DNA of 64,000 nucleotides. It comes from Bdellovibrionales bacterium (GTDB taxonomy: Bacteria > Bdellovibrionota > UBA1018 > CAIMNF01). Each line of letters starts with the position of its first letter. The stretch's first letter is position 1. A model generated the notes under the pieces. It had not been told where the DNA came from. It did no database searches and saw only the letters and a program-made list of their open reading frames with translations. The stretch spans positions 103 to 64,102 of the forward strand of contig CANBTI010000005.1 of the NCBI GenBank assembly GCA_947372355.1, written 5' to 3'. Made by a program: the position numbers and the translations under genes. Positions 27,001 to 42,660 of the stretch are shown piece by piece.

Positions 27001-28413
27001 ATGAAGAATTTTAAGTTTATATTTTTAGGTATGTTAGCACTTTCAACTATGGGCCTTAGTTCAGCTCCCAAAAAGGGAACCGCCACCTTTGAATTAAGTG
27101 ACTGGCCAAAACAAATGAGCAAAATTCATTCGATGGAACTTGATTTAGCTGGTGTGAACCTAAATCAAAAGCAAGTGGATCTCATCATCAACAATGATCA
27201 AATTGAATCATTAAAAAAATTGGGATTTAAATTAATCAGCACCAATTTTAATTCAAATAAATCATCTCCAGATTCTGGCTATCAATCCCCAGTAAAAATC
27301 GAATCCAGCTTAAAACAATATGCAGCTAAATTTCCAAACTTAGCTCAACTCACTTCAATTGGAAAATCTCTCGAAGGAAGAGATATTTGGGCAATTCGTC
27401 TTACTAAAGACGTTGCAACCAATAACCCAGCAAAACCTCACATACTTTTCAATTCCATGCATCATGCGCGCGAAGTGATGACTGCTGAAGTTGGTTTAGA
27501 TATTGTTGATCAATTGCTCACCCAATACGGAAAAGACGCGAGCATCACTCAATGGATGGATTCATATGAAATTTGGGTGATTCCAATGTTTAACGTAGAT
27601 GGAAATAATTTAGTATGGACTCACGATAGCATGTGGAGAAAAAATGCTCGCGGTGGGTATGGTGTGGATATTAACCGCAATTATCCATATGCTTGGAATA
27701 GTTGCAATGGATCCGGAAGTTCACAAAGTGCTCAAGATTTCCATGGAGCAAGCGCTGCTTCAGAACCTGAAACAAAAGTAATGATGAACTTCGTTAATCA
27801 AGTTCGCCCGGTATTTGAAATTTCCTATCACTCCTACAGTGAATTAGTGATTTACCCTTATGGTTGCCCAAATCAGCACACACAAACAAAAGATGTGATT
27901 GAAAAAATCGGTAAAGAACTCGCTAGTAAACTCGTTTCCGATAACGGTAAAGGCACCTACACCGCCGGAACTGCACCAGAACTTCTCTATGCAGTAGATG
28001 GAGGCGATATTGATTGGCTCTATCACGAAGCACAAGTGATTCCATTTGTGATTGAAATCAATTCAAACGGTCAAGGCTTTCAACCTTCTTATTCAAAATG
28101 GCGAGATATTACAGTTCAACGCCAAAGAGAAGGATGGAAGTATTTATTGAATCGCATGAGTGGTTCGGCAATTCACGGCCAAGTGACAGATCAAAAAGGC
28201 ACTCCAATCACTAATGCAAAACTTCACATCACTGGGCCTACCAACCAAGATTATGCCGTAAACAATGAAGGATATTTTTTCGTAATTCTTAACCCAGGAA
28301 ATTATTCAATTACCGTTCAAGCACCTGGAACTGAAAATACCTCAAAAAATATTACCGTTGCTAACAAACCGATTGAATTGCCAATGAAGATGTTTACTGC
28401 CAAATCCCTGTAA
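27001..28413 (+). CDS. M14 zinc carboxypeptidase with C-terminal carboxypeptidase-regulatory-like (transthyretin-like) domain
   Basis: Signal peptide from ATG 27001 (MKNFKFIFLGMLALSTMGLSSA); zinc ligands HHAREVMTAE; C-terminal IHGQVTDQKGTPITNAKLHITG...NYSITVQAPG beta-sandwich. Confidence 0.8.
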   Translation: MKNFKFIFLGMLALSTMGLSSAPKKGTATFELSDWPKQMSKIHSMELDLAGVNLNQKQVDLIINNDQIESLKKLGFKLISTNFNSNKSSPDSGYQSPVKIESSLKQYAAKFPNLAQLTSIGKSLEGRDIWAIRLTKDVATNNPAKPHILFNSMHHAREVMTAEVGLDIVDQLLTQYGKDASITQWMDSYEIWVIPMFNVDGNNLVWTHDSMWRKNARGGYGVDINRNYPYAWNSCNGSGSSQSAQDFHGASAASEPETKVMMNFVNQVRPVFEISYHSYSELVIYPYGCPNQHTQTKDVIEKIGKELASKLVSDNGKGTYTAGTAPELLYAVDGGDIDWLYHEAQVIPFVIEINSNGQGFQPSYSKWRDITVQRQREGWKYLLNRMSGSAIHGQVTDQKGTPITNAKLHITGPTNQDYAVNNEGYFFVILNPGNYSITVQAPGTENTSKNITVANKPIELPMKMFTAKSL

Positions 28414-29230
28414 TCGGAGTAGCAGTTACATCACCGTTGCCAAGATTCCCGATACCAAAATGATCTTCAATCATTTTTAATATGGAATAATGATTATGAG
28501 GCAAGTTTACCACTGAGCCTGGTTTTACATTTGCACCATAGAATGCAGTAAATATTTGGTTTTTACTGAAAATATTTTCAGATTCATCAAAGGTAATGAT
28601 CAAAAGAGTATCCTTCATGAATTTTGAATCATTTAATATTCCACCAAAATTATCTGAAAACCATTGGGAAGCAAAAGCAGAACTGGTGTTGTGCCCATCA
28701 TTTTTTAAATTAGGAATATACATAGAAAATGCAGGCACAGAATTAGAAGCAATATCAATTTTCAATTGCGCAGAAGGAACTACCTTTAAACATTCATTCC
28801 TATTATTTTGAACATTAGTAAAACTAAGAAATGGAACATGCTTCCTCGCATAGAGACCACTATCAGAACCTAAAAAACACGGTTGAGGCAAGTCTTCTGC
28901 GTAAACTTTCCATGATAAGTTTTTCTTCGCTAGTAGACCACCAATATGTTCGGCATTGATACTTACTGAATCATCATTTCTCACACCTTGAGTACTACCA
29001 GAAATCATCGCTAAGTAATTAGGCTGAGAAGGATGAGCTTCTGCTGAGAACTGAGTAAAGAGAGCACCTTCATTTGCCAATTTCGCAAAAAAGGGCTGCT
29101 TTAATGCAACACTATAGTTTGCATTTTCAAAAACAACAATCATCACACGATTAAAAGAAGACTCAGCTGCCCAAACACTAGAAGAGTTAAAAAATGTAAG
29201 CATCAGGAAAACAAACAAAAACTTAATCAT
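28394..29230 (-). CDS. Secreted phosphoesterase-family protein (PLC/AcpA-like)
   Basis: Signal peptide; MIVVFENANYS resembles the V-V-x-E-N-R-S-F-D motif of the phosphoesterase family. It is shorter than typical members, hence moderate confidence. Confidence 0.5.
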   Translation of the reverse strand: MIKFLFVFLMLTFFNSSSVWAAESSFNRVMIVVFENANYSVALKQPFFAKLANEGALFTQFSAEAHPSQPNYLAMISGSTQGVRNDDSVSINAEHIGGLLAKKNLSWKVYAEDLPQPCFLGSDSGLYARKHVPFLSFTNVQNNRNECLKVVPSAQLKIDIASNSVPAFSMYIPNLKNDGHNTSSAFASQWFSDNFGGILNDSKFMKDTLLIITFDESENIFSKNQIFTAFYGANVKPGSVVNLPHNHYSILKMIEDHFGIGNLGNGDVTATPITGIWQ

Positions 29231-29287
29231 CTGATTGTATTATCACTGATCTAAGTTCTCGGTTATTTTTAATTTTATTCAATCATT

Positions 29288-30190
29288 TTAGATACTTGCT
29301 TCGGAATCTCGAATCTGTTTCACTTCATAAGCAAACTCACCCCAAACCCAAACGGGAACTATTCCACTTCTGAAAATATCTTTAGAAACACTCCCAAAAA
29401 CCGTACTCTCCCAAGGTCGAAGTGTAGAGGAGACTCCAACCAATTCAACTTTTCTTTTTTTACAAGCCTCTAGAATAGACTTACTCACCGTATTTGGTGA
29501 ATCGATCACCATGGTAGAGATTTTTATTTGTGAATTAATATCTTTATATTTTTTTGCCCACACAGATAATTCTTTTTCGTCTTCATCATTTTTTCTCAAA
29601 AAATTATTCGGGAACATGGCCGGGACGCCGATTGCACTATATACACCCAAGGCTTCCACCAACGATCGACCTGCATGAAAAATAATAATTTCATCAATAC
29701 TACCCTCACAAAAATTTATAAAGTTCTTAAAAGCAACTTCTGAGTTTTTTGAAAAATCAGTAGCAAAAATTGCTTTTTTTGAAAGGTCAAAGATAGATTC
29801 AGTTAGAAAAAGAATGGGTATTGGGGAAATATTCAGCAATTTCTCAGCAAAACTTCCCATGACTAAGCGATCAATCCCTTTTCTTCCATGAGAAGAGAGC
29901 GCTATTGCAGAAGCCTTATTCTCTAAGGCAAAGATTAAAATCTTTTTTATATAATCATCCCGATCATACGAATCACTGATCAAAACTTTTGGTTGATGAA
30001 AATTACAGATCCCTAAACTCACGAGATAAGAATATAATTTATTCTGCGTAATTTCTTGATCTGGAGAAGTAATCGAAACTGGATAAACACTTTTACTTTC
30101 TAAAAACTTCAAAGTGGAAAAAGATGGCTTTACTGTTTCATCATCAGGATCAACAGCCCAAATTACAATTGAATGCTTAGAGTGTATCAT
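29288..30190 (-). CDS. Tandem universal stress protein (UspA) domain protein
   Basis: ALSSHGRKGIDRLVMGSFAEKLL matches the Usp ATP-binding G-x2-G-x9-G(S/T) motif; two Usp-like halves. Confidence 0.6.
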   Translation of the reverse strand: MIHSKHSIVIWAVDPDDETVKPSFSTLKFLESKSVYPVSITSPDQEITQNKLYSYLVSLGICNFHQPKVLISDSYDRDDYIKKILIFALENKASAIALSSHGRKGIDRLVMGSFAEKLLNISPIPILFLTESIFDLSKKAIFATDFSKNSEVAFKNFINFCEGSIDEIIIFHAGRSLVEALGVYSAIGVPAMFPNNFLRKNDEDEKELSVWAKKYKDINSQIKISTMVIDSPNTVSKSILEACKKRKVELVGVSSTLRPWESTVFGSVSKDIFRSGIVPVWVWGEFAYEVKQIRDSEASI

Positions 30191-30222
30191 TAACCCTCCT
30201 GATCATTGAGAATGAATCCTAA

Positions 30223-31659
30223 TCAAGATTCATCAGTTGTTTCCAATTGATTTTCTTCACTTTCGTCTGCAGAAGACAATCCGTATTCTTGTTCTTTACG
30301 ATAAAGAGTTCGACGATTAATGCCAAGAATTTGAGAAGCTTTATCTTTTCTTCCGCCAGTTTTTTCAAGAATCAAACGAATATATCTTTCTTCTAATTGA
30401 TTAATTGAAGGAAAATCAATGGTAGATGTAGAAAAGAACTTATCAGCACTTTGTTCCTCAACAGATGGTAAATCCACCTCATCTACTAAATTTGAAGTGC
30501 ATAAAACTACAGCGCGTTCCACAACATTTTCTAGTTCACGAACATTACCATCCCAACGCATACTCATTAATTTTGAAATTACTCTTTTGGTAAAACCTTT
30601 AACATTAATATTATTTGCAGCAGCGTGCTTTCTAAGGAAATGCTCGGCTAGAAGAGGGATGTCATCCACTCTTTGTCTTAGTGGTGGAATGACAATTGGA
30701 ATTACACTCAGTCGATAAAATAAATCATCTCTGAAAAGACCCTCTTTCATTGCTGATTTTAAATCCTTATGTGTAGCAGAAATAATTCTAACATCGATAT
30801 CTCGAGCAATATTTTCACCTACCGCACGTACCTTTTTTTCTTGAATCACTCTTAATAGTTTAGCCTGAAGTGATACATCCATATCTCCAATTTCATCTAA
30901 AAATATAGTTCCGCCGTTTGCTTCCTCAAATAAGCCCCTTTTTCTTTGAGAAGCTCCAGTAAAAGAACCTTTCGCATGACCAAAGAGCTCAGATTCTAAG
31001 AGATTTTCAGGAATCGCGGTACAGTTGATTGCTACAAAAGGTTTGTTTGCTCTTGGTCCGCCGGCATGAATTGCTTGTGCAACCATTTCTTTTCCAGTAC
31101 CACTCTCACCCGTAACTAAAACATTGGATGTAACCTGTGAAACGCGATTCACTAAATCAAAAACAGATTTAATCGCTGCACTTTTTCCAATCATGCTTCC
31201 TAACGACCAATTACTTTTTAATTCTTGTCGAAGCGCTGTATTATCGCGTTGAAGCTGACGATACTCAATTGCTCTTTCAACATTGACGAGCATTTCAGTA
31301 AGTTTAAAAGGTTTTACAATGTAATGGAAAGCTCCTTTATTCATTGCTTCAACTGCAGTTTCAATTGATCCAAATGCAGTGATTAAAATTACTGGAATTT
31401 CTGGTCGAAGAAGTTTTAACTTTTCAGTTAACTCTAAACCGCTCATTTGTGGCATTTTAATATCTGAAATAATTAAATCAATATTGCCTTCAGTTTTATT
31501 TGAAGCATGAATCCCATCACTTGAAAAAGATTGTAGTGCATCATTTGCAGATGAAAAACAAATCACCTCATAACCGTCACCGGTTAGATAATCATCAAGT
31601 AGGGCTCTCATTTCTTTGTCATCATCAATCACTGCAATTTTAGCTTTAGAGATTTTCAT
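30223..31659 (-). CDS. Sigma-54-dependent response regulator (NtrC family: REC + AAA+ + HTH)
   Basis: REC (AVIDDDKEMR...ISDIKMPQMSG), Walker A GESGTGKE, sigma-54 contact loop ESELFGHAKGSFTGA, C-terminal Fis-type HTH. Confidence 0.85.
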   Translation of the reverse strand: MKISKAKIAVIDDDKEMRALLDDYLTGDGYEVICFSSANDALQSFSSDGIHASNKTEGNIDLIISDIKMPQMSGLELTEKLKLLRPEIPVILITAFGSIETAVEAMNKGAFHYIVKPFKLTEMLVNVERAIEYRQLQRDNTALRQELKSNWSLGSMIGKSAAIKSVFDLVNRVSQVTSNVLVTGESGTGKEMVAQAIHAGGPRANKPFVAINCTAIPENLLESELFGHAKGSFTGASQRKRGLFEEANGGTIFLDEIGDMDVSLQAKLLRVIQEKKVRAVGENIARDIDVRIISATHKDLKSAMKEGLFRDDLFYRLSVIPIVIPPLRQRVDDIPLLAEHFLRKHAAANNINVKGFTKRVISKLMSMRWDGNVRELENVVERAVVLCTSNLVDEVDLPSVEEQSADKFFSTSTIDFPSINQLEERYIRLILEKTGGRKDKASQILGINRRTLYRKEQEYGLSSADESEENQLETTDES

Positions 31660-31813
31660 ATTTTTTCCTTAGGGTATGTGTAATTCAAACCAGTCAAAAA
31701 CACAAAGGAATAGCAGGGGAAATTGATAATTATTTAGTTTAAGTATATTTAATTTTATGCTAATAATTTAGTAGAAAACGGCCAACAAGAATCAGACCAA
31801 CAGTTAAAAAAAT

Positions 31814-32950
31814 ATGACTAAATTAAAAAATTACAGCATCTTGGTGATTGGTAACCAAAATGATTTTCTCGAAATAAATGGGCACTTAAAAAAATTAAAA
31901 AATTTTGAGGTAGAGCTTTTAACTGAAATCACTTCAGACAAATTACATGCCAAAGTATTTGATCTTTACTTTCTGAAACTCTCTCCTCAATCAAAAGAAG
32001 AACTTAAAACCTTAATTGATTTAAATCTTCATACCCACACTACCCCCATCATCATTTACTCCAATAAATATGACCACCAAATGGCACTGAAGGTAGTAGG
32101 ATTGGGAGCATCTGATTATGTATCACTTGATCAAATCGATGAGTATTCTCTAGAAAAATCGATATTTTATACCATTCATCACTCCAATGAAATCAAAGCC
32201 CTGTTGGTGAATAAAATTGAAGCTGCAATTCAAGACAGACTCTCCACTACAGAAATTCTCGCTTCAAGTTTAGCTCATGAAATTGGAACTCCTTTAGGAA
32301 TCATTCGCGGTAGAGCCGAGTTTATGCAACTTCAAACAAAGGAAAGCTCATTCATTCAAAAAAATCTAGAAACTATTATTTCTCAAATTGATCGTGTTTC
32401 TCATCTTATTAACTCTCTTTTAAAGATTTCTAATGGTACCGATTCAGAATCTTCAAATGCCTATTTTGCACAAGATATGATTAAAGAAGTAATTGAATTG
32501 CTAGATTATGAATTTCGAAAGCTTAATATTAATTTCATTAATGATTTTGAAAACTCAGATCCCACCCCACTAGGATCAGAGGTGAAACATTTTCATAAAG
32601 TTTTAATGAATATTTTAATGAATTCTATTCAGGCTATTCAAAGTGCTAAAGAACAAGGAAGAACAGAACAGCATTCGATTAAAATCACCAAAGAAATTCA
32701 CAATGATTTTTTACGCATTACCGTAAGCGATACAGGTTGTGGGATCCATGAAGCAAAACTAAAAAATCTATTCACTCCCGTTTTTAAAACCATTGATTTT
32801 GATCAGAACCCTGGTTTTGGTTTAGCAATTACTCATCGGATCGTGGAATCTTGGGGTGGTAAAATTGAAGTTACCAGTAAGCCAGATTTAGGCACTCAAG
32901 TTTCCATTCAACTTCCAAATAAATTAAAAACTAAAAATATTAGTGAATAA
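31814..32950 (+). CDS. Cytoplasmic sensor histidine kinase with N-terminal pseudo-receiver-like domain
   Basis: H-box SSLAHEIGTPLGIIRG, HATPase_c (SDTGCGIH...GFGLAITHRIVESWGGKIEV); divergent from the NtrC-like regulator. Confidence 0.8.
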   Translation: MTKLKNYSILVIGNQNDFLEINGHLKKLKNFEVELLTEITSDKLHAKVFDLYFLKLSPQSKEELKTLIDLNLHTHTTPIIIYSNKYDHQMALKVVGLGASDYVSLDQIDEYSLEKSIFYTIHHSNEIKALLVNKIEAAIQDRLSTTEILASSLAHEIGTPLGIIRGRAEFMQLQTKESSFIQKNLETIISQIDRVSHLINSLLKISNGTDSESSNAYFAQDMIKEVIELLDYEFRKLNINFINDFENSDPTPLGSEVKHFHKVLMNILMNSIQAIQSAKEQGRTEQHSIKITKEIHNDFLRITVSDTGCGIHEAKLKNLFTPVFKTIDFDQNPGFGLAITHRIVESWGGKIEVTSKPDLGTQVSIQLPNKLKTKNISE

Positions 32951-33260
32951 CTTTTAAAGTATCTTTTGGAATAGCAACTAATAGCAAACCATCACGATAT
33001 TGAGTTGCAATATTTCTTCCATGTGAACGTACAATCACATCTTTAGGTGAAAAACCATTTCCATTATCTTTACTTCCATCTCCTTTGATCACCAATTGAT
33101 CATCGAGTAGTTCTATATCAATCACATTACCTGTAATAAACCTTCCATCAATACTTAGTACATAATGAGTATCTCCTTCCTCCACATCAAAGATTGGATA
33201 TAACGGATAAGCCAAAACAAGGGCCTGCTGAATTTTTGAATAGGGTTGTTGTAAAATCAT
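32940..33260 (-). CDS. Small heat-shock protein (Hsp20/alpha-crystallin-like)
   Basis: PIFDVEEGDTHYVLSIDGRF...LVIKGD...LLLVAIPK fits alpha-crystallin domain pattern. Confidence 0.5.
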   Translation of the reverse strand: MILQQPYSKIQQALVLAYPLYPIFDVEEGDTHYVLSIDGRFITGNVIDIELLDDQLVIKGDGSKDNGNGFSPKDVIVRSHGRNIATQYRDGLLLVAIPKDTLKVIH

Positions 33261-33289
33261 GTTTCCGTATCTCCTAGGGAATTAGTTAA

Positions 33290-33304
33290 GCAAGAAAGGG
33301 GCCA
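33290..33304 (-). promoter_or_regulatory. Sigma-54 -24/-12 promoter upstream of Hsp20-like gene
   Basis: Minus-strand TGGCCC-ctttc-TTGC (rc of GCAAgaaagGGGCCA); -12 element 30 nt upstream of ATG 33260; RBS aggagat. Confidence 0.5.
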
Positions 33305-33374
33305 GCAATGAGTCGTTCAATTGGTTTTGAGTGAAGGATTTATTGTAAAAATGTGTTTTTTGAGCAAATTTGTC

Positions 33375-33683
33375 TCATTTTTTTATTTTAACCTGGTGAG
33401 TATTCATAAAATTCTCATATTTATAGGCTATTTGATTCAGAGTTAATTTATCTTTACGTTCGATCGCAGAATCCATCTCTCGAGCCAGTTCTACAATGTA
33501 ATGGTAACCAAATGATCCTGGCGTACCTAGAAGTCGGTGGCTAAGTTTTTTTAATGAGTGATAATCTGAAAATTCAATTCCACTTCTTAATTTTTCTAAA
33601 TCTTTCCACCTCATTTCAATAAAAGTAGGTAGAACTGGTTCCAAAACTCGCTCTACATTCACCACCCAATTTTGATTTTCCAT
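33375..33683 (-). CDS. Hpt (histidine phosphotransfer) domain protein
   Basis: LKKLSHRLLGTPGSFGY matches Hpt H-x-[LI]-K-G-s-s-x-x-x-G. Confidence 0.5.
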   Translation of the reverse strand: MENQNWVVNVERVLEPVLPTFIEMRWKDLEKLRSGIEFSDYHSLKKLSHRLLGTPGSFGYHYIVELAREMDSAIERKDKLTLNQIAYKYENFMNTHQVKIKK

Positions 33684-33686
33684 AAG

Positions 33687-34109
33687 TTATCCCACTCTTT
33701 TTTCATGAGATTTTTTGGTAAATAAATTTTGTCTCATTGTGGTTGGAGCAGTTCTAAACTCACCAATCGTTTTAATAAAATCAGGAATCTTAAAAGGTTT
33801 TTGAATTACTCCAACTACTCCTTGGGGCAATTTCATTTGCTTTAATCTGGGTACAGCGGAGAAAAACATGATGGGTGTATTTTCTAATATTCTTTCAGTT
33901 TTAACTGCAGACAAGAACTCATCGGACTTCATATCCGGTAGAGTTAAATCCAATAATATTAAAATCACCTCTGGACGAGTTCTTAAGATAGCAATTCCTT
34001 CTCCCGCTGTTGCAGCAGAAATGATATGATATCCCTCTTGTTCCAATAGCAATCTTAAAAGATCCTGCATTTCTCCATTATCTTCAATCACCAAAATATC
34101 GTTATTCAT
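33687..34109 (-). CDS. Single-domain response regulator receiver
   Basis: ILVIEDNGE...ILLDLTLPDMKSDEF; Lys near C-term. Confidence 0.8.
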   Translation of the reverse strand: MNNDILVIEDNGEMQDLLRLLLEQEGYHIISAATAGEGIAILRTRPEVILILLDLTLPDMKSDEFLSAVKTERILENTPIMFFSAVPRLKQMKLPQGVVGVIQKPFKIPDFIKTIGEFRTAPTTMRQNLFTKKSHEKRVG

Positions 34110-34148
34110 ACGTAGTTCCCAATACTATTTACGTTAAATAAAAATTAA

Positions 34149-34649
34149 CTAAACTGCTCTTTGAAAATGAAACCTTAAAAGATCAACAATCTCAGAGATG
34201 GGTTTCGTTTTTTTCACATGAGCAAGATACTTAAAATGCTTTGTGTAAGGCGGCTTACACTTTGATTTTTCACAGCTGGATAGAATAATCACTGGAACTT
34301 TTTTATTTTCCCATTCCAGTGGTAAGTTTGGCTCGAATTTGAACCCCTTTTCAGCTGCCACTAAAGTTTCATGGCCATTGAGTTTTGGAAGATCCCACTC
34401 TAATACAATTAAGTCGTAGGCATGTTCGGTCATCAAATCCATCGCTTCGAATGGGTCTTGGGCAACGGAAACCTTCAAGTCTCTGTCAAATTGCAGAAGT
34501 AATTGAATTTGGTTTGCCATTGCTTGATCATCATCAATGATGAGTACTCTTTTATACTTTTTTGTCTTGCTCAGATTTCGCAATGGCAACAGTGGTAAGA
34601 AGAAAGAATCATATGTTGTTAAACTACCGGCTACGAAATTAGAAAGCAT
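34149..34649 (-). CDS. Atypical receiver domain protein with Glu at the phospho-acceptor position
   Basis: RVLIIDDD (acidic pair) ... YDLIVLEWDLPKLNG aligns residue-for-residue with PhoB DLILLDWMLPGGSG, which places E at D53; ILSS and KP (T/K equivalents) present. Confidence 0.65.
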   Translation of the reverse strand: MLSNFVAGSLTTYDSFFLPLLPLRNLSKTKKYKRVLIIDDDQAMANQIQLLLQFDRDLKVSVAQDPFEAMDLMTEHAYDLIVLEWDLPKLNGHETLVAAEKGFKFEPNLPLEWENKKVPVIILSSCEKSKCKPPYTKHFKYLAHVKKTKPISEIVDLLRFHFQRAV

Positions 34650-34686
34650 GCATCACCCCTTTAATGTTTGTTCTGCATTCATCAAA

Positions 34687-34701
34687 GCAAGCACAATGCC
34701 A
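34687..34701 (-). promoter_or_regulatory. Sigma-54 -24/-12 promoter upstream of REC-REC-Hpt operon
   Basis: Minus-strand TGGCAT-tgtgc-TTGC (rc of GCAAgcacaATGCCA), 38 nt upstream of ATG 34649; strong RBS aaagggg. Confidence 0.55.
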
Positions 34702-34794
34702 ATTCTAAATAGCTGAAAATACTTGGATTGAAATCTCATTTATTTAATTTTACTTGATTTGACTCAAAATAGAGACTTATTGCCCCTGATAAGC

Positions 34795-35958
34795 CTATTG
34801 ATCACTTTCAAGTACTTTATACGATCGTCCCTCAAGTGAGGCACAAATTGACTCATAGATAAGTTTTTTGCAGGTTGAACAAAACAACTGTTTATTTTCA
34901 TCAAGACCCTTTAGGTTTACCATTTCAATCATTGATTTTTTTTCACAGCTTTTACAAATCACCTCAAAAGAACTACCGCTCACTGCAATGTCATTAAAAG
35001 GATGTTTATTCTTTAATAATCGAGCCTTTTTAAAAGCAGAATAGATTTGAAGATCAGCGATGTTAGCCCCGTTTGAGAATACCGTTACAGGGCCATCTTC
35101 TGAGATGGTGAATACGATTACATCTTCATGATCGTAAGAATATCTAACAGATGAAGTGTGTCGCGTGCCTTTGCACGCAGGAACAATTTTACGGCTTTTT
35201 TCAGAGTATTTAAGGTGTTCACCAGTACTCATTAATAATCCCTTAGAATCCAAAAATGTTGCACCATCCACCTGTGAGAGCAAATGACAAAACAACCGTG
35301 AATGAGAATCATTCATGATCGATAGTTGAAGAGATGCCAAATCTGAAGAAACTTTGTTAATTTTACCCAACTGCCAAACAATGACTCCCCCAGCTCTCAT
35401 GGTTGGGCTCATTAAATGGAACGAAAATTCCAAAATACTACTCAAAATAATCTTATCAATATTGGTAACGCATTTTGAAACTTTCCATGCGGCTTCTTTA
35501 ATATTAGGCTTACTAAACCAACGACGATTTTCGTGAATGATAATTCCATTATTTTGATAAAATTTTGCTAATCCACTGGATTCTTTTTGAATGATTAATC
35601 CAGCAGTAAGTGGGAAATTTCTAATCATTTGAAGTTCGTTGTTTATGGAGTGATTAAAACGGGCTAAGCCAAAAAAACTATCCTTTTCATACAATACAAA
35701 CCACTCCTTACCATCAGCCATCTTTCTAGCTATTTCTAATTGCTCATTTTGGAGTGAAATCACTTCGATATTTTCCAACTCAGAAATATTCTCAGCAAAT
35801 ATAATCCCACTGGAAAACATCTTGCCCTCATGCACCTCTGGTATAATTGCTCTTATACATTCTTGCGTAATGCTTTTTGACAATAACCAATCAAATTGAT
35901 TAGATCGCACACCATTTAATTCTAACTCTTGTGCGATCAGACTTTGCATTACCGACAT
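34795..35958 (-). CDS. DAC (diadenylate-cyclase-like, DisA_N/CdaA-type) domain protein with N-terminal unknown domain and C-terminal CxxC-x23-CxxC zinc ribbon
   Basis: MRAGGVIVWQ (GALI-like), SQVDGATFLD (DGA motif), ACKGTRHTSSVRYSYDHEDVIVFTISEDGPVTVFSNGANI aligns with CdaA [37 protein letters not shown] but with RHR->RHT; CKSCEKK...CSTCKK. Confidence 0.6.
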   Translation of the reverse strand: MSVMQSLIAQELELNGVRSNQFDWLLSKSITQECIRAIIPEVHEGKMFSSGIIFAENISELENIEVISLQNEQLEIARKMADGKEWFVLYEKDSFFGLARFNHSINNELQMIRNFPLTAGLIIQKESSGLAKFYQNNGIIIHENRRWFSKPNIKEAAWKVSKCVTNIDKIILSSILEFSFHLMSPTMRAGGVIVWQLGKINKVSSDLASLQLSIMNDSHSRLFCHLLSQVDGATFLDSKGLLMSTGEHLKYSEKSRKIVPACKGTRHTSSVRYSYDHEDVIVFTISEDGPVTVFSNGANIADLQIYSAFKKARLLKNKHPFNDIAVSGSSFEVICKSCEKKSMIEMVNLKGLDENKQLFCSTCKKLIYESICASLEGRSYKVLESDQ

Positions 35959-36063
35959 AAACGTATTGAATGCATAAAATCGGCCATCATAGTATTTAAT
36001 AAAATGTCGGCATACTTATTGATAATAACAATTGTGTCATTCAATGGACTTGGGGGAAGTAGA

Positions 36064-36504
36064 ATGGAATCTACAAAGAAGCGGAAGTCCGTATACGTTA
36101 TCGAAGATGATATTGAAATGTCTACGATCATTGATCGTGTTTTAAAGAGCATTGATCCAAGTATTATCTTAGATTGGTCTACGAGTGCGGAAGAGGCGAT
36201 ACTAAAAATCCAATCAGCTCTAAAGAAAGGCGTTAAAAAACCATATGATTTGATCATTACCGATGTTCTTTTGGATGGTTCACGCAGCGGAATAGACTTT
36301 TGGCAATTCTGCCAAAATGAATTCAGCAAAATACCCATTGTGGTTACCTCCGCTTGCAGTAAAGATTCACTATTTAAGACAAGTACGCCCCTTCCGAAGT
36401 CTTTAATATTTCTGCAAAAACCTTTTTCAATTTCAGAAAGTAAAAAGCTTTTTAAAAAACTTCTACTCGAAAAATCAAATACAACACAAAGCCAAAACTT
36501 ATAG
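36064..36504 (+). CDS. Single-domain response regulator receiver
   Basis: SVYVIEDDIEM...YDLIITDVLLDGSRSGIDF...LQKPF; probable start ATG 36064 (the track's 35929 start overlaps the upstream convergent gene). Confidence 0.7.
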   Translation: MESTKKRKSVYVIEDDIEMSTIIDRVLKSIDPSIILDWSTSAEEAILKIQSALKKGVKKPYDLIITDVLLDGSRSGIDFWQFCQNEFSKIPIVVTSACSKDSLFKTSTPLPKSLIFLQKPFSISESKKLFKKLLLEKSNTTQSQNL

Positions 36505-36507
36505 GGT

Positions 36508-36522
36508 TGGTACACAACTTGC
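36508..36522 (+). promoter_or_regulatory. Sigma-54 -24/-12 promoter upstream of REC-HK pair
   Basis: TGGTAC-acaac-TTGC with exact spacing; -12 element 40 nt upstream of ATG 36561; RBS tggggg. Confidence 0.5.
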
Positions 36523-36560
36523 TTTTAATATCTTTTACTTATTATTAATGGGGGCTTGCT

Positions 36561-36935
36561 ATGAGTAATCAGGGCATTTTAATCATTGAGGATGAAGATT
36601 GAATCAGAGAAGGACTAAGTCTTTCCTTGGAACTAGAAGGCTATACTACCTACACTGCTTCAAATGGTCAGGAGGGATTAGACATTTTGTCTCAGATCTC
36701 ATCTCCGAGTCTCATTCTTTTGGATTTAATGATGCCCGTGATGAATGGGTGGGAATTTGTTGAATCCATTAAAAAAATCAAAAAACTATCCAAAATTCCT
36801 ATTGTAATCATATCTGCATTTTACGATCAATCGAATAATATTCCTGTCCAGGGTCATTTGAAAAAACCAATTGCACTAGCCAATTTATATAAGACCATAA
36901 AAGATTTGGAAGTAACAAATGAGCAAAATGCTTAA
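36561..36935 (+). pseudogene. Receiver-domain gene interrupted by in-frame TGA at codon 14 (36600-36602)
   Basis: atg agt aat cag ggc att tta atc att gag gat gaa gat TGA atc aga gaa... = MSNQGILIIEDED*IREGLSLSLELEGY..., same frame as ORF 36627..36935; close paralog of intact REC at 39988..40356 (IIDDDETVRNTL). Confidence 0.6.
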
Positions 36936-37685
36936 TAATGACGAATATAAACAAACACTGACATTAGAAAAACATGCAAGGCAAGAAGCAGAAAAATCAC
37001 TCAGGCAGCGTGATGAATTTATTTCAATCGCCGCTCATGAGCTCAATACGCCACTCGCAGCCCTGACATTACAATTACATCTTCTTAAAAACTTGTCATT
37101 GAAGGTAATCATAAAAAAAATAATCATAAAATTGTTTCAAATTTATTAAAAAACTCAAATCTTCAAGTTGAAAGGCTAACAGGACTAGTAGAAAACCTTT
37201 TAGATACTACAAGAGCCAGCAATGGAAAATTATCCATTGAAAAAACTAAAACCGATTTATGTAAAACTGTACGCAGAGTAATTAAATTACATAAATTGGA
37301 TATTATAAAAAACAAATCTACTTATAGTCTTAATTTAGTGAAATCAGCAATTGGGCTTTGGGATCCCATCAGAATTGAGCAAGCAATTTCAAACTTGGTA
37401 AGTAATGCAATTAAATATGGAGCAGGAAAACATATTATTATTTCGGTTGGCATTGATAGCTTAAATGCTAAAATAACAGTGGAAGATCATGGAATTGGAA
37501 TGAGTAGCGAAATACTTTCCAAAATATTCAATAGATTTGAAAGAGCTGCTACCATTAAAACTTATGCAGGATTAGGTCTCGGGTTATTTATTACTAAAGA
37601 AATCATCAATGAGCATGGAGGAAAGATAGTTGCTGAAAGCAAACTTGAAGAAGGATCAATTTTTACGATAGAACTTCCTATTTAA
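36919..37685 (+). pseudogene. Sensor-less histidine kinase interrupted by a -1 frameshift in an A8 tract (37113-37120)
   Basis: Frame 1 encodes H-box FISIAAHELNTPLAALTLQLHLLKN and stops at 37149. From 37089, frame 0 continues KIVSNLLKNSNLQVERLTGLVENLLDTTRA...HATPase_c (GLGLGLFITKEIINEHGGKIV) to 37685. The switch site is the run aaaaaaaa. Confidence 0.65.
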
Positions 37686-38786
37686 ATTTAGAAAACTTAA
37701 AATTTTAAATAAGTAATTATGACTCTCCTTTTTTTGATTCTGAAGCCTTTGATTTAGTAGCGCATTATCTAAAGCAAAACTAATCCTATTACAAACATCT
37801 TCGGCTAGTCGTAAATCTTCCCAGGTGAATCTTCGTTCTATGTTAGAAGACATAAAGGTAATCACTCCATAGGAATGATCTCTAATGGTTAATGGAACGA
37901 GCATCATTGAATAAATTTTTAGTTTTTCCAATACTTCATTAAACGAAGAGTTTAAAAAAACTTCTCTTAGAATTAATTCAGAAGTCTCACTATACAACTC
38001 TGACTTTCCATCATGGATCACTTTGGGTATCCCTGTTGCTCCTAGAGAACTGATCCCTTGCTTTTGCCGACAATCCTTACCTATTATCGATAACGATTGA
38101 TCTGGATAATAAAAATCTAAGCATTCAATTTGTCCATTTTCATCCAATATATCAATCGAATAGGATTCAGTAATTTTTGGAACGATCATTCTACGGATCG
38201 CCCTTAGAGTGTCTTCCTGCATTACACAATGAGCCAATGTTCCATTGATGAGATTTAAGTAAACCGATTTTGAAGAAAGATCATGCAATAGTTTTTCAGT
38301 TTTAATTCGTTCGGTAATATCCCTAAAACTCCATGTTCTTCCTATTGCATTTCCATTCCTCATTTGCCCTTTAGAAAAACGCTCATAAATTCTGCCATCC
38401 TTAAATTCAATTAGATCTAAACTTTCACTGATATGATCGTTATACAGTGCTCTCACTTTACTGAGAAACATTTCCGGATCTTTAACTTGATCAATTACAA
38501 AAACAAGAAGCTGATCGTCATCTAAGGCTGCGGCAACTGATTCTGGTATTTTCCATAATTCTATAAACTTTTTATTAAATGAAGTAATTTTACCCTGGAT
38601 ATCTACAATTAAAACACCATCAATGATCGATTCAATTGTTTCTTTGATGATTGAATTGCAATTTAAATATTCACTTGATTTAACGCCACTCAACATTGAT
38701 CGAATTTCTCCCATTTCTTTTCTCAACGATTCGATCTTAGTAAAATTCGTTTCCTGTTTTTCCATTATCATTGACTTAGAATGCAA
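37656..38786 (-). CDS. PAS-GAF sensor protein without output domain
   Basis: N-terminal PAS (IIDGVLIVDIQGKITSFNKKFIELW...RDITERIKTE) followed by GAF-like region; 3' end overlaps convergent HK by 30 nt. Confidence 0.6.
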   Translation of the reverse strand: MHSKSMIMEKQETNFTKIESLRKEMGEIRSMLSGVKSSEYLNCNSIIKETIESIIDGVLIVDIQGKITSFNKKFIELWKIPESVAAALDDDQLLVFVIDQVKDPEMFLSKVRALYNDHISESLDLIEFKDGRIYERFSKGQMRNGNAIGRTWSFRDITERIKTEKLLHDLSSKSVYLNLINGTLAHCVMQEDTLRAIRRMIVPKITESYSIDILDENGQIECLDFYYPDQSLSIIGKDCRQKQGISSLGATGIPKVIHDGKSELYSETSELILREVFLNSSFNEVLEKLKIYSMMLVPLTIRDHSYGVITFMSSNIERRFTWEDLRLAEDVCNRISFALDNALLNQRLQNQKKESHNYLFKILSFLNLNRKFYRKN

Positions 38787-38812
38787 TTTTTATGCTCTCG
38801 AACGAATATAAA

Positions 38813-38827
38813 CGGCATCAACATTGC
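38813..38827 (+). promoter_or_regulatory. Sigma-54 -24/-12 promoter upstream of patatin-like gene
   Basis: CGGCAT-caaca-TTGC exact spacing; -12 element 26 nt upstream of TTG start 38853. Confidence 0.55.
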
Positions 38828-38852
38828 TAACTTTCATTGCAGGAAGTGAAAA

Positions 38853-39991
38853 TTGAACAAAAACCTAGGATTAGTATTAATGAGCGGAGGGGCACGAGGC
38901 GCCTACCAAGCTGGCGCGTTGCGAGCGATTGCTGAAATATCAAAAACTGAAACCTTACCCTTCCCCTACTTAACTGGAATATCTGCAGGAAGCTTGAATT
39001 GTGGATTTTTAGGTTGCTATGCAGATAACTTTAATCAAGCGGTCAGCAAACTAACAGACCTTTGGTATAACATTACACCAAGTGATATCTTCACCACTGA
39101 TCCATTAAAACTTGTTAAAAATGGACTTGGATGGATTAAAGATTTTAGCATTGGTGGCGTGGTAGGAGGCGTGAAAGGACGTTCATTACTAGACACCGCT
39201 CCTTTAAGAGAACTCTTAATTAAAAATTTAGACATGACCAAATTGGTTGATCACATATCCACAGGAAAAATTAAGGGTTTTGCAGCTTCGGCAACTAACT
39301 ATTACACAGGAACTTCAGTAGTTTTTTTTGACGGAATGCCTTCTATTGAACCTTGGATTCGTAATACAAAGATGGGAATACGCACTACCATCACCATCGA
39401 GCACCTCATGGCATCATCTGCAATTCCATTTTTTTTCCTGCAGTTAAAGTGGGTAATGCATTTTACGGAGATGGGTGCATTCGAATGCATTCTCCACTGA
39501 GTCCGGCCATCAATATGGGTGCAGAAAAAATTATCGCGATTGGAGTACGACACGAGCGATTAGTAAAAAAATCCAGCGATTTAGAAACTCCTTATTTTAT
39601 ACATTATCCCTTATTTGCAGAATTGGGCGGAATGATCTTTAATGCCATATTTTTGGATTCTCTAGAAGATGACATTGAACTTTCACATTCAAAAAATGTT
39701 ATCTTTTTACTTACTTCAAAAAAAAAACAATCCGACACTCGAATAAAACATATTCCCACTATGCTTCTCAGACCATCAATCGATCTTGAAAATTTAGTAA
39801 GGAAATCAGCAAAAAAGTTTCCTATGACTATTCAACATTTTTTAAAAGGCATGGGAGCATCTAGTGAAACTGGCTGGAATTTGATGAGTTATCTTGCCTT
39901 TGATTCAACTTATACCAGTCGATTAGTGGAACTTGGATATGAAGATACAATTTTAGCCAAGAGCAAATTAACCGATTTTATGGAAATTTAA
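38853..39991 (+). pseudogene. Patatin-like phospholipase split by a frameshift in a T8 tract (39429-39436)
   Basis: ORF1 has the oxyanion hole GGARGAYQAG and GISAGS (GxSxG nucleophile); ORF2 (frame -1) has AVKVGNAFYGDGCIR (catalytic DG) and the rest of the fold. Restoring T9 gives AIPFFFPAVKVGNAFYGDG in one frame. Confidence 0.7.
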
Positions 39992-40356
39992 CAATTCAGT
40001 TTTTTTAAAGTTTCCAACAATCGTTTTAGATCGATTGGTTTTTTTAAAAAAGCATTTACTTTAATTTTTTTTGCTTGTTCACTAAATGCACTGATCACCA
40101 CTACTGGGATTTTAGAAATTAATCGATCATTTTCACGAAAATCCAAGAACTCCCATCCATCCATAATTGGCATCATGAGATCCAATAAAATCAAACAAGG
40201 TCTCGGAATTTTTTCCAAAACTTCAATCCCCTCTTGACCATTAGATGCTGCAAAAACCGTATAATGTTCTTTTTCAAGAACCTCAATTAATGTATTTCGA
40301 ACGGTTTCATCATCATCAATAATTAGGATAACTTGATTCTTCATATCTATTTTCAT
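39988..40356 (-). CDS. Single-domain response regulator receiver (CheY-like)
   Basis: ILIIDDDETVR...LILLDLMMPIMDGWEF...LKKPI. Confidence 0.8.
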   Translation of the reverse strand: MKIDMKNQVILIIDDDETVRNTLIEVLEKEHYTVFAASNGQEGIEVLEKIPRPCLILLDLMMPIMDGWEFLDFRENDRLISKIPVVVISAFSEQAKKIKVNAFLKKPIDLKRLLETLKKLNC

Positions 40357-41581
40357 GGCTGAAACTTGACTTCATCCAAACTAAAGATTCATTTACCAAA
40401 TGATCGATATTCCCCACCATTAACTTTGCATTTGATTCCGGCATTAAATCTATAGCGATTCGATTTGAAAAAATGAGTTCACTATGATCAGACTCTATTA
40501 TAAATAAAGTTGGGCACTTAATTTTTTGAAGTGGAATCAGTAAATCAGGTTTTCCATTCAGTGAAACCATGCCCTGTGTAAGAGGTTCAAATAAAGAAAC
40601 ACAATGTAAAATTGCCGCAACACCAGAGCCTGATCCAAAGAATGCTATTGGCAATTGATCAAAAACAACATTATTTTTCAACCATTGCGTGATCATAGAT
40701 AATCTTTGCGAAATAACATCAACATGATAATAATTCGAATTGGAATTAATTTCATCTTCAGTAAAGAGATCAAAAACCAAAGTTCCATAACCATTTTCAT
40801 TCAAACTTTTGGCAATTTTAAGATTTTTAATGTTTTTTCTGCAACTGCCCTTACCATGTACAAAAATAACCCAACCAGATATTTTTTTAGGCTTCACCAA
40901 TTCCCCAACAATTTTTTTACCAAACACTTCAATACTAACTTCGTTGAATGAAAAGTTTTTTAATTCTCTTTTAATCAGATCAACTTCTAAGGTTGGATAT
41001 TCTTCATACCACTCACCAACCGAGCCAAAAATTGAAGGTGTATGAGCAGAGAATAGATAATCTGCTTCTGATTTTACCAATTGGTATCCAGTAGGTGAAG
41101 CCACTGGTACTACCACAGTGATCTCTTTGGCCCCCTGAATTCTAAGCGAACGGAGCGCCACTAACATCGAAGCTCCTGATGAAATTCCATCATCTACTAA
41201 AATAACGGATCTATCCCTCACATCCATTGGATTCAATTTTAATTGAAAGATTCGTTCTATATTTTGAACTTCCATCATCGATCGTGCAATTGTTTTATCC
41301 AATTGAAATTGGTTAATATTTAAAAAATTAATTAATTCATTATTTAACCAAATCTGATAGCTATCACCTACAGCACCAATTTCATAATTTGGATTAAGTG
41401 GGGTTCCTATTTTACTGACTGCAATCATCTCTAATGAAGCTCTTAATTTTTTCGCAATCGCCTTTGCCACTGGAACGCCAGTCAACGATAAAGCCACAAC
41501 AACTGCATTTTTATACTTCCATTCGTTATAAATTGCATTTGCTAATACGATTCCTGCTTGTTCTCTATTTTTGAAATACAC
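40316..41581 (-). CDS. Fusion protein: N-terminal type-I phosphoribosyltransferase-like domain (COG1926-type) + C-terminal alpha/beta hydrolase (dienelactone-hydrolase-like)
   Basis: PRPP loop VILVDDGISSGASML; hydrolase GWVIFVHGKGS, nucleophile elbow FFGSGSGVAA, His in NIDHL; GTG start at 41581. Confidence 0.6.
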   Translation of the reverse strand: MYFKNREQAGIVLANAIYNEWKYKNAVVVALSLTGVPVAKAIAKKLRASLEMIAVSKIGTPLNPNYEIGAVGDSYQIWLNNELINFLNINQFQLDKTIARSMMEVQNIERIFQLKLNPMDVRDRSVILVDDGISSGASMLVALRSLRIQGAKEITVVVPVASPTGYQLVKSEADYLFSAHTPSIFGSVGEWYEEYPTLEVDLIKRELKNFSFNEVSIEVFGKKIVGELVKPKKISGWVIFVHGKGSCRKNIKNLKIAKSLNENGYGTLVFDLFTEDEINSNSNYYHVDVISQRLSMITQWLKNNVVFDQLPIAFFGSGSGVAAILHCVSLFEPLTQGMVSLNGKPDLLIPLQKIKCPTLFIIESDHSELIFSNRIAIDLMPESNAKLMVGNIDHLVNESLVWMKSSFSHENRYEESSYPNY

Positions 41582-41599
41582 GGTTTAATCCCCTAAGCA

Positions 41600-41866
41600 T
41601 TATTTTAAGATAATTTTTTTATCGTGATATGCAAAAACTGGTGGTGGCCTTTTGGGTGGGTATTTTGAATGGGTGTTTTGAATATGATTTGAATTTTCAA
41701 CAACCTGATTGGGCGGATTAAGCACTTGTTGTAATTGTATAATACTAAGGCTCACTAAAGTGATGCAATACACTTTCGACATTAATTTTCTCATCAGCGA
41801 TGAAAAATGTTTGAATTTATAACTTTCAGCAGAAGTTGAATAATACATAAGTTGAGCCCATCCCAA
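41600..41866 (-). CDS. Small membrane protein (first gene of sigma-54-driven operon)
   Basis: TTG at 41866 or ATG at 41848 (MYYSTSAE...); hydrophobic VYCITLVSLSIIQL; perfect-spacing sigma-54 promoter immediately upstream supports expression. Confidence 0.4.
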   Translation of the reverse strand: MGWAQLMYYSTSAESYKFKHFSSLMRKLMSKVYCITLVSLSIIQLQQVLNPPNQVVENSNHIQNTHSKYPPKRPPPVFAYHDKKIILK

Positions 41867-41876
41867 ATATTTATTA

Positions 41877-41891
41877 GCAACCTATATGCCA
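41877..41891 (-). promoter_or_regulatory. Sigma-54 -24/-12 promoter upstream of small-protein/PRTase-hydrolase/REC operon
   Basis: Minus-strand TGGCAT-atagg-TTGC (rc of GCAAcctatATGCCA). Confidence 0.55.
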
Positions 41892-41954
41892 TTAGCATTT
41901 CCAATGGACTTCAAGCAATTTTAGTTCATTGGGTTTAAAAAATCTGAATGAGAC

Positions 41955-42002
41955 AAAAAATACAATTAAGAAAGGGATGGTCCATTTAAGTCCCATCCCC
42001 TT
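41955..42002 (-). terminator. Candidate rho-independent terminator after gene 42054..42602
   Basis: aagggatgg (41972-41980) / ccatcccctt (41993-42002) stem, followed on minus strand by T-rich cttaattgtattttttgtctc. Confidence 0.4.
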
Positions 42003-42053
42003 CTCATTATTTTCCAACTCAATTATTAGTGATTTAGAAAAAAACTCCCGTCA

Positions 42054-42602
42054 TTAACGGCCATTATTGTTGTCACATGGTGTTGGAGTTGGAGTTACGG
42101 TAGATCTTGTAATATGTGCTTTAACTACACAATAGATCACTGCTCCAACAATCACCACTCCGATTACTCGCATTGCCCAACGGTAACTACCTTGACCCCC
42201 ACTATAATTAGCTCCGTGTTGGTAACTACCAGCCATGAAATTCATCGCTAGATTACCAGCTTGCTCAGCAGAAACTTGACTTGTATCAATGGAAGTTAAT
42301 AAACGATCAAAATCCGCTCTTGCAGCTTCATCTAGAGTTGTGGTGCGCATGAAATCCATGATTTCAGTTGGTGCAATACCTTGCGCTTGTAAATTTTCTA
42401 ATTTTTGTTTGAAATCTGTAATAGCAACAGTTTGAAAGTTTGGATCATTAGGATCAACTTCAACTGTCATTTTATATCGAAATTCATTAAATGTTTTAGC
42501 AATCATTTTTGAATGTAAATCAATGTTATCATTTCCTACTGCAGCGAATGCCGAGTTAGAAACCATAGCTAAAACTGTGAACAGACTGAATACTTTTTTC
42601 AT
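42054..42602 (-). CDS. Secreted/membrane-anchored protein, paralog A (signal peptide, conserved ~130-aa domain, C-terminal TM)
   Basis: MKKVFSLFTVLAMVSNSAFA; shares TFNEFRYKMTVEVDPND...RADFD.LL.S...VS.E.AGNLAM.FMA..YQ.GA.YSGG and the TM (VIGVVIVGAVIYCVV) with 42788..43777. Confidence 0.6.
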   Translation of the reverse strand: MKKVFSLFTVLAMVSNSAFAAVGNDNIDLHSKMIAKTFNEFRYKMTVEVDPNDPNFQTVAITDFKQKLENLQAQGIAPTEIMDFMRTTTLDEAARADFDRLLTSIDTSQVSAEQAGNLAMNFMAGSYQHGANYSGGQGSYRWAMRVIGVVIVGAVIYCVVKAHITRSTVTPTPTPCDNNNGR

Positions 42603-42645
42603 TACCGACTCCTTTGATTATTGTTTTGTAGACGAATCCCTAAAA

Positions 42646-42660
42646 GCAATCACTATGCCA
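42646..42660 (-). promoter_or_regulatory. Sigma-54 -24/-12 promoter upstream of paralog A
   Basis: Minus-strand TGGCAT-agtga-TTGC (rc of GCAAtcactATGCCA), 44 nt upstream of ATG 42602. Confidence 0.55.

Follow-up and report, generated by a model that had tools for sequence, protein, structure and literature searches.

A gene on the minus strand of a Bdellovibrionales genome fragment (34795..35958) encodes a 387-residue protein that belongs to a catalogued, uncharacterised family, DACNK+DAC, built around a diadenylate cyclase (DAC) domain. The fragment, hereafter the window, is the whole 64,000-nucleotide stretch that we analysed (assembly GCA_947372355.1, contig CANBTI010000005.1, positions 103 to 64,102). 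On balance, we lean towards reading the protein as a soluble DACNK-DAC diadenylate cyclase with an added C-terminal zinc ribbon, whose activity would be set by its flanking domains and by a phosphorelay acting through a receiver encoded beside it. An annotation made earlier from the letters of the window (the original prediction) had described a divergent DAC protein with an altered catalytic motif, a novel N-terminal domain, a C-terminal ribbon and receivers as neighbours; how these claims fared is reported with the evidence that bears on them.

Domain Organization of the Cyclase

The gene was characterised from the open reading frame (ORF) list, Pfam profiles, hydropathy and the ratio of nonsynonymous to synonymous substitution rates (dN/dS). 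Two curated Pfam families match its product: residues 9-151 (35506..35934, minus strand, like all features of the gene) match PF21753, "Probable sensor domain DACNK" (63.1 bits, E 3e-17), and residues 188-297 (35068..35397) match PF02457, DAC/DisA_N (38.9 bits, E 7.5e-10), in each case above the gathering cut-off of 27. The first assignment is complemented by two family alignments (A1, with 31 sequences, and A5) and by an AlphaFold2 (AF2) model of residues 1-165, and the second by a Foldseek comparison and a HMMER alignment described below. The DACNK domain directly precedes the DAC domain, an order that is identical in the homologs. These matches bear out the DAC protein of the original prediction at the profile level; its N-terminal domain, described there as novel and unrelated, is instead a catalogued family, which none of the relatives we examined carries apart from DAC.

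Pfam detected no HhH domain in the protein, and the DAC domain is central. Residues 326-379 (34822..34983) form a zinc-ribbon-like module, recognised from the translation, the conservation of its cysteines and the AF2 model. C335/C338 and C360/C363 make up the two CxxC pairs that the original prediction had read as a ribbon, each of the four being at least 90% conserved in A1, and C372 is semi-conserved. In the model the module folds into five beta strands with a predicted local distance difference test (pLDDT) score of about 90; its Pfam matches came down to a single weak TRASH-like one (E 0.33). For the full-length AF2 model, pLDDT was 87.9 and the predicted TM-score (pTM) 0.82. The protein is soluble and has no transmembrane segment, the highest 19-residue Kyte-Doolittle window reaching 0.97.

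Family loci (L001-L093) were gathered from genomes and metagenomes with the pattern SEDGPV[TS][VI]F. Compared with the strain of locus L092, from which the window gene has diverged to a dS of 0.71, the dN/dS of the cyclase gene was 0.031, and the values by domain were 0.026 (DACNK), 0.032 (DAC) and 0.040 (C-terminal part). With values near 0.03, purifying selection on each of the three domains is strong.

The DAC Fold and Its RHT Motif

The DAC core of the AF2 model matched Enterococcus faecium CdaA (8ofo) in Foldseek (E 2e-4, prob 1.00, TMt 0.57, 148 columns), which was the sole PDB structure match of the full-length model at E ≤ 1e-3. At the sequence level, the sole PDB match in HMMER was a diadenylate cyclase, 9g69_C (E 0.06), and in that alignment the motifs pair one by one, as had been claimed: GGVI with GALI, DGA with DGA, GTRHT with GTRHR, and SED with SEE. 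The DGA motif (D231, G232, A233; 35260..35268), the GTRHTS motif (G264-S269; 35152..35169) and SEDG (S286, E287, D288, G289; 35092..35103), the last being the counterpart of the metal/phosphate-binding (V/I)SEE motif, were located from the translation. Within A1, D231, G232, A233, G264, S286, D288, G289 and P290 are invariant, and T265, R266, H267, T268, S269, R272 and E287 are at least 90% conserved.

The canonical RHR (GxRHRxA) is incomplete in the window cyclase, which reads GTRHTSS: R266 and H267 are kept and the second arginine is replaced by T268, the change from RHR to RHT that had been noticed before. The T268 codon, ACT (35155-35157), is two substitutions away from any arginine codon, and all four threonine codons occur at this position across the family. 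The identical protein is encoded in independent NCBI and Logan assemblies, and the diverged strain of L092 keeps RHT. A sequencing error, raised by the original prediction as a way in which RHT could be undone, is ruled out by the ACT codon, the identical protein elsewhere and the conservation throughout the family. Because T268 and its neighbours are at least 90% conserved in the 31-sequence alignment, RHT is a genuine signature of the family.

What the threonine means for catalysis can be gauged from the contacts made by ATP in Listeria monocytogenes CdaA. A review lists side-chain contacts from L31 (GALI), D71 (DGA), T102, R103, H104, S122 and E124 and main-chain contacts from L88, G101 and E123; the second arginine of RHR is absent from its list of ATP and metal contacts (PMC7288161), and the original prediction therefore overstated the weight of the change. 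The counterparts of the listed side chains in the window protein (V192, D231, T265, R266, H267, S286 and E287/D288, from the HMMER alignment and A1) are all conserved. We infer from this conservation that the DAC domain is probably catalytically competent, and a non-catalytic role is less likely because every listed catalytic contact is conserved. Altered nucleotide specificity and a pure nucleotide-sensor role, both suggested by the original prediction, were neither borne out nor contradicted. We also considered R272, which is nearly invariant in the family and aligned with a glycine of 9g69_C, as a relocated stand-in for the lost arginine; this is not favoured, as the branch with an intact RHR has R272 too.

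A Rare Family with a Covarying Active Site

A search of 5.8 billion proteins returned 49 relatives of the window cyclase, most of them 385-420 aa long and annotated as DACNK+DAC. One homolog carries the NCBI name "diadenylate cyclase [Bacteriovorax sp.]", and several have automatically been named "DisA" by JGI. A search of 1.84 billion proteins with the DACNK domain alone yielded only 62 representative clusters at E ≤ 1e-3; of the full-length representatives found in this way, 46/46 contain DACNK and 42/46 contain DAC, with no other Pfam family. The architecture is thus rare, which agrees with the original prediction that it is unusual, but it is already catalogued in Pfam, and one homolog already bears the name of a diadenylate cyclase. 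The closest relatives in species-representative genomes are metagenome-assembled genomes (MAGs) labelled Bdellovibrionales and Oligoflexia; further members come from one Planctomycetota and from a large, more distant Acidimicrobiia/Actinomycetota branch. "SEDGPV" is present in 90/90 family ORFs, an invariance that is partly by construction because the same motif served as the collection pattern. A contig from a MAG labelled Nitrosovibrio sp. (L003, CALPVV020000001.1) has the same gene order and neighbour pattern as L088; against the family HMMs (hidden Markov models), the receiver neighbours of the two loci score identically and the cyclases have near-identical E-values. The Nitrosovibrio label may reflect mis-binning.

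Our literature search found no paper that uses the name DACNK in this sense. Galperin, in 2023, reportedly defined several new N-terminal DAC domains and is probably the source of the name. DACs have been classified in 22 families by their N-terminal domains (Galperin 2023, as cited in PMC12901056 and PMC10249747).

An alignment of 89 distinct family sequences was scored at positions 232, 265 and 268, which correspond to the glycine of DGA, the threonine of GTRH and the last residue of RHR (window codons within 35155-35265). Two combinations predominate: G/T/T in 37 sequences, including the window protein and all Bdellovibrionota-type members, and L/M/R in 46, many of them from Acidimicrobiia. 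Three sequences have G/T with A, G or N, one has G/M/T, and none has the G/T/R that is canonical in CdaA and DisA. This pattern suggests that the three positions are structurally coupled, and that the whole DACNK-associated clade may have an active-site environment somewhat unlike that of textbook DACs. With no canonical G/T/R member in the family, a product other than c-di-AMP is therefore conceivable. The L/M/R branch, which combines DLA with GMRHR, has lost the phosphate-binding threonine and may deviate more than the window protein does.

A Dedicated Receiver beside the Cyclase Gene

Divergently from the cyclase gene, across an intergenic region of 105 bp (35959..36063), runs a gene for a single-domain response-regulator receiver (36064..36504, plus strand; Pfam REC). 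Its phospho-acceptor set is complete, with the acidic pocket (D15), the aspartate D67, S96 and K119, and its dN/dS against L092 is 0.034. An orthologous receiver lies directly upstream of the DAC gene in 11/15 Bdellovibrionota-type loci: it is divergent in L091, L092, L093, L083, L085, L001, L088 (the same locus in L003), L089 and L004, whereas in L087 it shares the strand of the DAC gene and lies 10 bp upstream of it. Such a receiver is not adjacent in L090, L002, L005 and L006, nor in the roughly 74 distant loci, mostly from Acidimicrobiia. The adjacent receivers are 38-56% identical to the window copy, compared with 20-27% for other receivers, and by their shared signatures and full phospho-acceptor sets they form one orthologous group. 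This receiver stays beside the cyclase while other neighbours change between species, as in L085, L089 and L087.

Six orthologous loci were aligned across the spacer between the two genes without a conserved operator being found, only a trivial 8-nt inverted repeat. Among the approximately 74 loci of the Acidimicrobiia branch we found no conserved partner gene, the best neighbour cluster occurring in 11. In the literature searched, direct phosphorelay control of c-di-AMP was not found described for a DAC.

The original prediction had pointed to receivers in place of the usual glmM partner and to a possible difference in regulation. Receivers, Hpt and histidine kinases do adjoin the gene, with no glmM seen. 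The protein has its own N-terminal domain and a zinc ribbon, no transmembrane segment, and receivers beside it, so that its regulation must be unlike that of CdaA-GlmM.

Proposed Control of the Cyclase and Competing Explanations

DACs in general work as head-to-head dimers. We propose that the DAC domain of the window protein would make c-di-AMP, or a close cyclic-dinucleotide relative, from ATP in such dimers, and that RHT would be a variant of the motif specific to the lineage without any loss of function. The DACNK "sensor", and possibly the zinc ribbon, would govern how the DAC domains pair head to head, and through this the synthesis of c-di-AMP. For members of the Bdellovibrionota-type subfamily, the input would be the phosphorylation state of the dedicated receiver, which, once phosphorylated via the neighbouring Hpt/histidine-kinase relay, would switch the oligomeric state of the cyclase and so couple two-component signalling to c-di-AMP output. 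What the data show directly is the domain make-up, the conservation of the motifs, the purifying selection and the conserved adjacency and orthology of the receiver; enzymatic activity, the product made, direct control by the receiver and what the ribbon does are what we infer.

The genes near some orthologs are in keeping with such an output. Around L085/L086, L089, L083 and L090 we found MscL, an RCK_C Na+/H+ antiporter, BON, P-type cation ATPases and trehalase, and the cluster in the window includes a tandem-Usp protein (29288-30190, minus strand); RCK_C and USP domains are c-di-AMP-binding modules. These osmotic and ion-homeostasis neighbours fit the known role of c-di-AMP.

Several points weigh against the proposed cyclase and its control by the receiver. 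The neighbours just named are anecdotal and not systematic. The DAC match is divergent (38.9 bits by profile, TMt 0.57 by structure and E 0.06 to the PDB by sequence), and the canonical RHR is incomplete. In Mycobacterium tuberculosis DisA, changing RHR to AAA abolished both ATP binding and activity (PMC3328451), although a triple mutant does not isolate the third residue; the literature consulted for this question yielded no single-residue mutant data on that position. Given that no family member has G/T/R, the active site may have been remodelled for another substrate or product, as in the defence protein PanS. Adjacency of the receiver gene is linkage, not physical interaction, and the receiver cannot be essential to the function of the family because 4 Bdellovibrionota-type loci and all distant loci are without it. 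Finally, our literature search found no experimental work on the DACNK-DAC family.

The most probable of the alternatives accepts the cyclase and disputes the receiver: adjacency would reflect co-regulation or shared ancestry only, and the enzyme would be controlled by a small ligand bound to DACNK or by some other protein. The pair is for the most part divergent, not co-transcribed, the intergenic region has yielded no conserved operator, DACNK is kept where the receiver is missing, and the region is generally rich in two-component genes. Nevertheless, the same orthologous receiver persists through a complete change of neighbourhood in L085, L089 and L087, and in L087 it lies on the same strand, 10 bp upstream. 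We regard this explanation as unlikely, though a serious contender.

A second alternative concerns the product. The DAC domain could be active yet remodelled, making a mixed cyclic or a linear dinucleotide in a pocket that T268 and R272 define differently. DAC domains can come to make 3'3'-cUA through active-site remodelling, as the PanS enzyme of the Panoptoo defence system does (Ragucci et al., bioRxiv 10.64898/2026.08.10.743927), and both the family's avoidance of G/T/R (37 G/T/T, 46 L/M/R and rare variants) and the near-invariance of R272 where 9g69_C has glycine could be read in this way. Against this, CdaA reads adenine through the GALI side chain and a main-chain contact (PMC7288161) and V192, the counterpart here, is still hydrophobic; no sequence feature indicates a particular alternative base; and the asymmetry of PanS arises from a lid loop, not from the RHR position (bioRxiv 10.64898/2026.08.10.743927). 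Taken together, a remodelled product seems to us improbable.

Slightly more improbable again is a pseudo-enzyme, that is, a nucleotide-binding sensor or receptor incapable of cyclisation and comparable to degenerate GGDEF/EAL domains. The incomplete RHR, the inactive DisA triple mutant (PMC3328451) and the modest DAC score would all fit such a role. However, the listed ATP, phosphate and metal contacts, including the ribose-binding aspartate and the metal-binding acidic residue, are nearly invariant, whereas residues of this kind are normally lost in pseudo-enzymes, and the DAC domain has a dN/dS of 0.032.

An anti-phage defence cyclase akin to DS-2C or PanS is very improbable: although the DAC core has a weak match to the NCBIfam model DS2_3_antiphage (E 0.0021, 16.5 bits) and DACs with uncharacterised N-terminal "DACN" domains do occur in defence systems (bioRxiv 10.64898/2026.08.10.743927), that score is far under the NF053872 cut-off of 630, PADLOC returned no match, neither DACNG nor DACNH is present in the protein, genes for CBASS, phospholipase or S2TM-beta effectors are absent from the vicinity, and the neighbourhood is syntenic across species and made up of two-component and housekeeping genes. 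We rejected a defence system on the empty PADLOC result, the sub-cut-off NCBIfam score and the missing effector neighbours.

A Possible DAC Ancestry of the DACNK Domain

H43, E44, G51, G83 and W147 of the DACNK domain are invariant in alignments A1 and A5. An AF2 model of the isolated residues 1-165 (35464-35958, minus strand) is a globular alpha/beta domain with a pLDDT of 89.3, and DAC enzymes make up 9 of its 10 best and 17 of its 32 top PDB structure matches. DacM (7dfx) was the best of these (E 5.6e-3, prob 0.96), and DisA (7y0d; prob 0.91, TMq 0.42), CdaA and CdaM were also among the matches; in the AF2 models, the N-domain and the DAC domain have their secondary-structure elements in parallel order. 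No structure match of the N-domain reached E ≤ 1e-3, and TM-scores were 0.35-0.42.

When profiles of the N-domain and of the DAC domain of the same family were compared in hhalign, this gave P values of 0.011-0.032 and scores of 18-20 with two of three N-domain alignments, against 0.19-0.77 and 8-13 for reversed and unrelated controls; the third alignment gave no signal above the controls, and the register was stable in the C-terminal half only. The DACNK HMM searched against PDB sequences produced just a chance 29-residue match, with no sequence-level link to a DAC or any solved protein, and Pfam at E ≤ 10 placed no family other than DACNK on the domain.

We put forward only tentatively, and as unproven, the idea that DACNK may be a degenerate, duplicated DAC domain, which would make the protein an intramolecular pseudo-DAC/DAC tandem. 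The DAC-like DACNK model may point to an ancient internal duplication. If so, the dead copy could mimic or block the head-to-head partner, and a phosphorylated receiver or a bound nucleotide would release the block.

The Surrounding Two-Component Cluster

The neighbours of the DAC gene are receivers, Hpt, histidine kinases, a sigma-54 activator and Usp, with no cdaR or glmM among them. Just past its stop codon is a terminator-like hairpin (34771..34787, minus strand; from a pattern scan, a consensus match only), and a sigma-54-type -24/-12 element, TGGCAT-N5-TTGCT (34686..34701, minus strand; pattern match), lies upstream of a REC-REC-Hpt block (33375..34649, minus strand). Because of this hairpin and this element, the DAC gene is probably a transcription unit of its own. 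The block, assigned with Pfam like the two genes beyond it, comprises receivers of 166 aa (34149-34649) and 140 aa (33687-34109) and an Hpt protein (33375-33683), all on the minus strand; farther on are a histidine kinase with a degenerate receiver (31814-32950, plus strand) and an NtrC-type sigma-54 activator (30223-31659, minus strand). The REC-REC-Hpt block, the kinase and the activator follow the DAC gene in the window as well as in L092 and L093, and the arrangement recurs in part in L083 and L088; L093 conserves both histidine kinase and activator, while L083, L087 and L088 conserve the activator.

Five exact sigma-54-type sites (TGGCAY-N5-TTGCW) occur in the window, all on the minus strand (34686-34701, 41876-41891, 42645-42660, 43856-43871 and 55272-55287), where 0.11 would be expected by chance. 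Their number suggests a sigma-54 regulon concentrated in the region and fits the NtrC-type activator at 30223-31659. We found no c-di-AMP riboswitch or other Rfam family within the window, and family HMMs run over all six frames of the 64 kb found no second DAC or DACNK gene there.

The 166-aa receiver of the block belongs to a second conserved receiver type of 166-167 aa, also present at L083:15290-15790 and L088:8296-8799 and marked by an insertion resembling "KGFKFEPNLPLEW" and by an extended N terminus. In L083 and L088 the gene for this receiver is separated from Hpt by no more than about 100 bp, and in the window it is one gene away from Hpt. Between Hpt and the kinase is a 106-aa ORF (32940-33260, minus strand) without a Pfam match, whose size and position are kept in L092 and L093 and which resembles, by eye, a small Hsp20/alpha-crystallin-like domain.

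Downstream of the partner receiver, three-frame translation revealed an interrupted hybrid kinase, REC-HisKA-HATPase (36561..37685, plus strand), in which codon 13 is followed by an in-frame stop and the frame shifts near 37086-37126, where there are 1-nt indels relative to L092. The gene calls are also split in L091 and L092, and dN/dS is below 0.1 for the receiver fragment, the HATPase fragment and the stretch between HisKA and HATPase, against 1.3 for the HisKA fragment; homopolymer assembly errors or recent decay could be the cause. Synonymous divergence from L092 is a mosaic, with dS of 0.17 for the partner receiver, 0.03-0.05 for the REC and HisKA fragments, 0.62 for the HATPase fragment and 0.71 for the DAC gene, which hints at recombination within the locus (36064-37685, 34795-35958). 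A patatin-like phospholipase gene (38853-39991, plus strand) is split in two overlapping ORFs of 215 and 180 aa; its relatives are a single 393-aa gene in L093 and a 370-aa product in L092, so the split is likely a frameshift or assembly error. The whole two-component/DAC cluster sits in a block of low G+C content (0.33-0.36 over 24000-44000, compared with 0.38-0.43 on either side).

Relation to Known Cyclases

Among the DACNK+DAC proteins of Pfam, the window cyclase is a member with the same domains in the same order and no difference in kind. The Bdellovibrionota-type subfamily is distinguished by its four-Cys ribbon and its partner receiver, which most Acidimicrobiia members are without. 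CdaA/DacA of the Firmicutes, which is anchored in the membrane by N-terminal transmembrane helices and encoded in a cdaA-cdaR-glmM neighbourhood, shares with the window protein the DAC fold and the GALI-like, DGA, GTRH and S-E-acidic motifs; the window protein differs in having no transmembrane helices, no cdaR or glmM neighbours, RHT for RHR, and the extra DACNK and ribbon domains. DisA also has a DAC domain with the DGA motif, but DisA begins with that domain and continues through a linker to a C-terminal HhH DNA-binding domain, whereas the window DAC is central, no HhH was detected, the C terminus bears the four-Cys ribbon and the third RHR residue is threonine.

A looser analogy is offered by diguanylate cyclases of the PleD/WspR type, in which receiver phosphorylation controls the oligomeric state of the enzyme. 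In both cases phosphorylation of a receiver would set the oligomeric state of a synthase that works as two domains face to face; in PleD/WspR, however, the receiver is fused to GGDEF, while the window encodes receiver and cyclase as two proteins, the catalytic fold is DAC, and only gene order connects them.

The window protein also resembles the defence cyclases DS-2C and PanS in its divergent DAC with a partly conserved DGA/RHR, and DS-2C in having an uncharacterised N-terminal "DACN" domain, although that domain is DACNG and DACNH in DS-2C and DACNK here (bioRxiv 10.64898/2026.08.10.743927). It differs from DS-2C in its lack of CBASS context and its NF053872 score (16.5 bits against a cut-off of 630), and from PanS, a minimal DAC of approximately 150 aa beside an S2TM-beta effector, in its 387 aa, its three domains and the absence of such a neighbour.

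Together, these comparisons leave the classification of the window cyclase unchanged by the receiver link or the covariation, and its chemistry is probably ordinary. The parts that deserve attention are the receiver linkage, the RHT and G/T/T versus L/M/R covariation pattern, and the possible DAC-like origin of DACNK suggested by its fold resemblance to DAC; these are what the present analysis adds to the catalogued family, although RHT, the ribbon and the link to the receiver may already be covered in Galperin 2023.

Most of what is understood about c-di-AMP synthesis comes from CdaA, DisA and CdaS of Gram-positive bacteria, and to our knowledge the switches that turn the majority of other DAC families on or off are not known. 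The covariation, with G/T/T in one branch, L/M/R in the other and G/T/R in neither, bears on the role of the third RHR residue. Should DACNK indeed descend from a DAC domain, the protein would embody a new autoinhibition logic for c-di-AMP synthesis, wired to a His-Asp phosphorelay. The cyclase is soluble, and the link of its gene to that of a dedicated receiver, amid Hpt, kinase and sigma-54 activator genes, predicts direct phosphorelay control of c-di-AMP, and the family would thus present a case for DAC regulation in the predatory-type Gram-negative lineages of the Bdellovibrionota/Oligoflexia.

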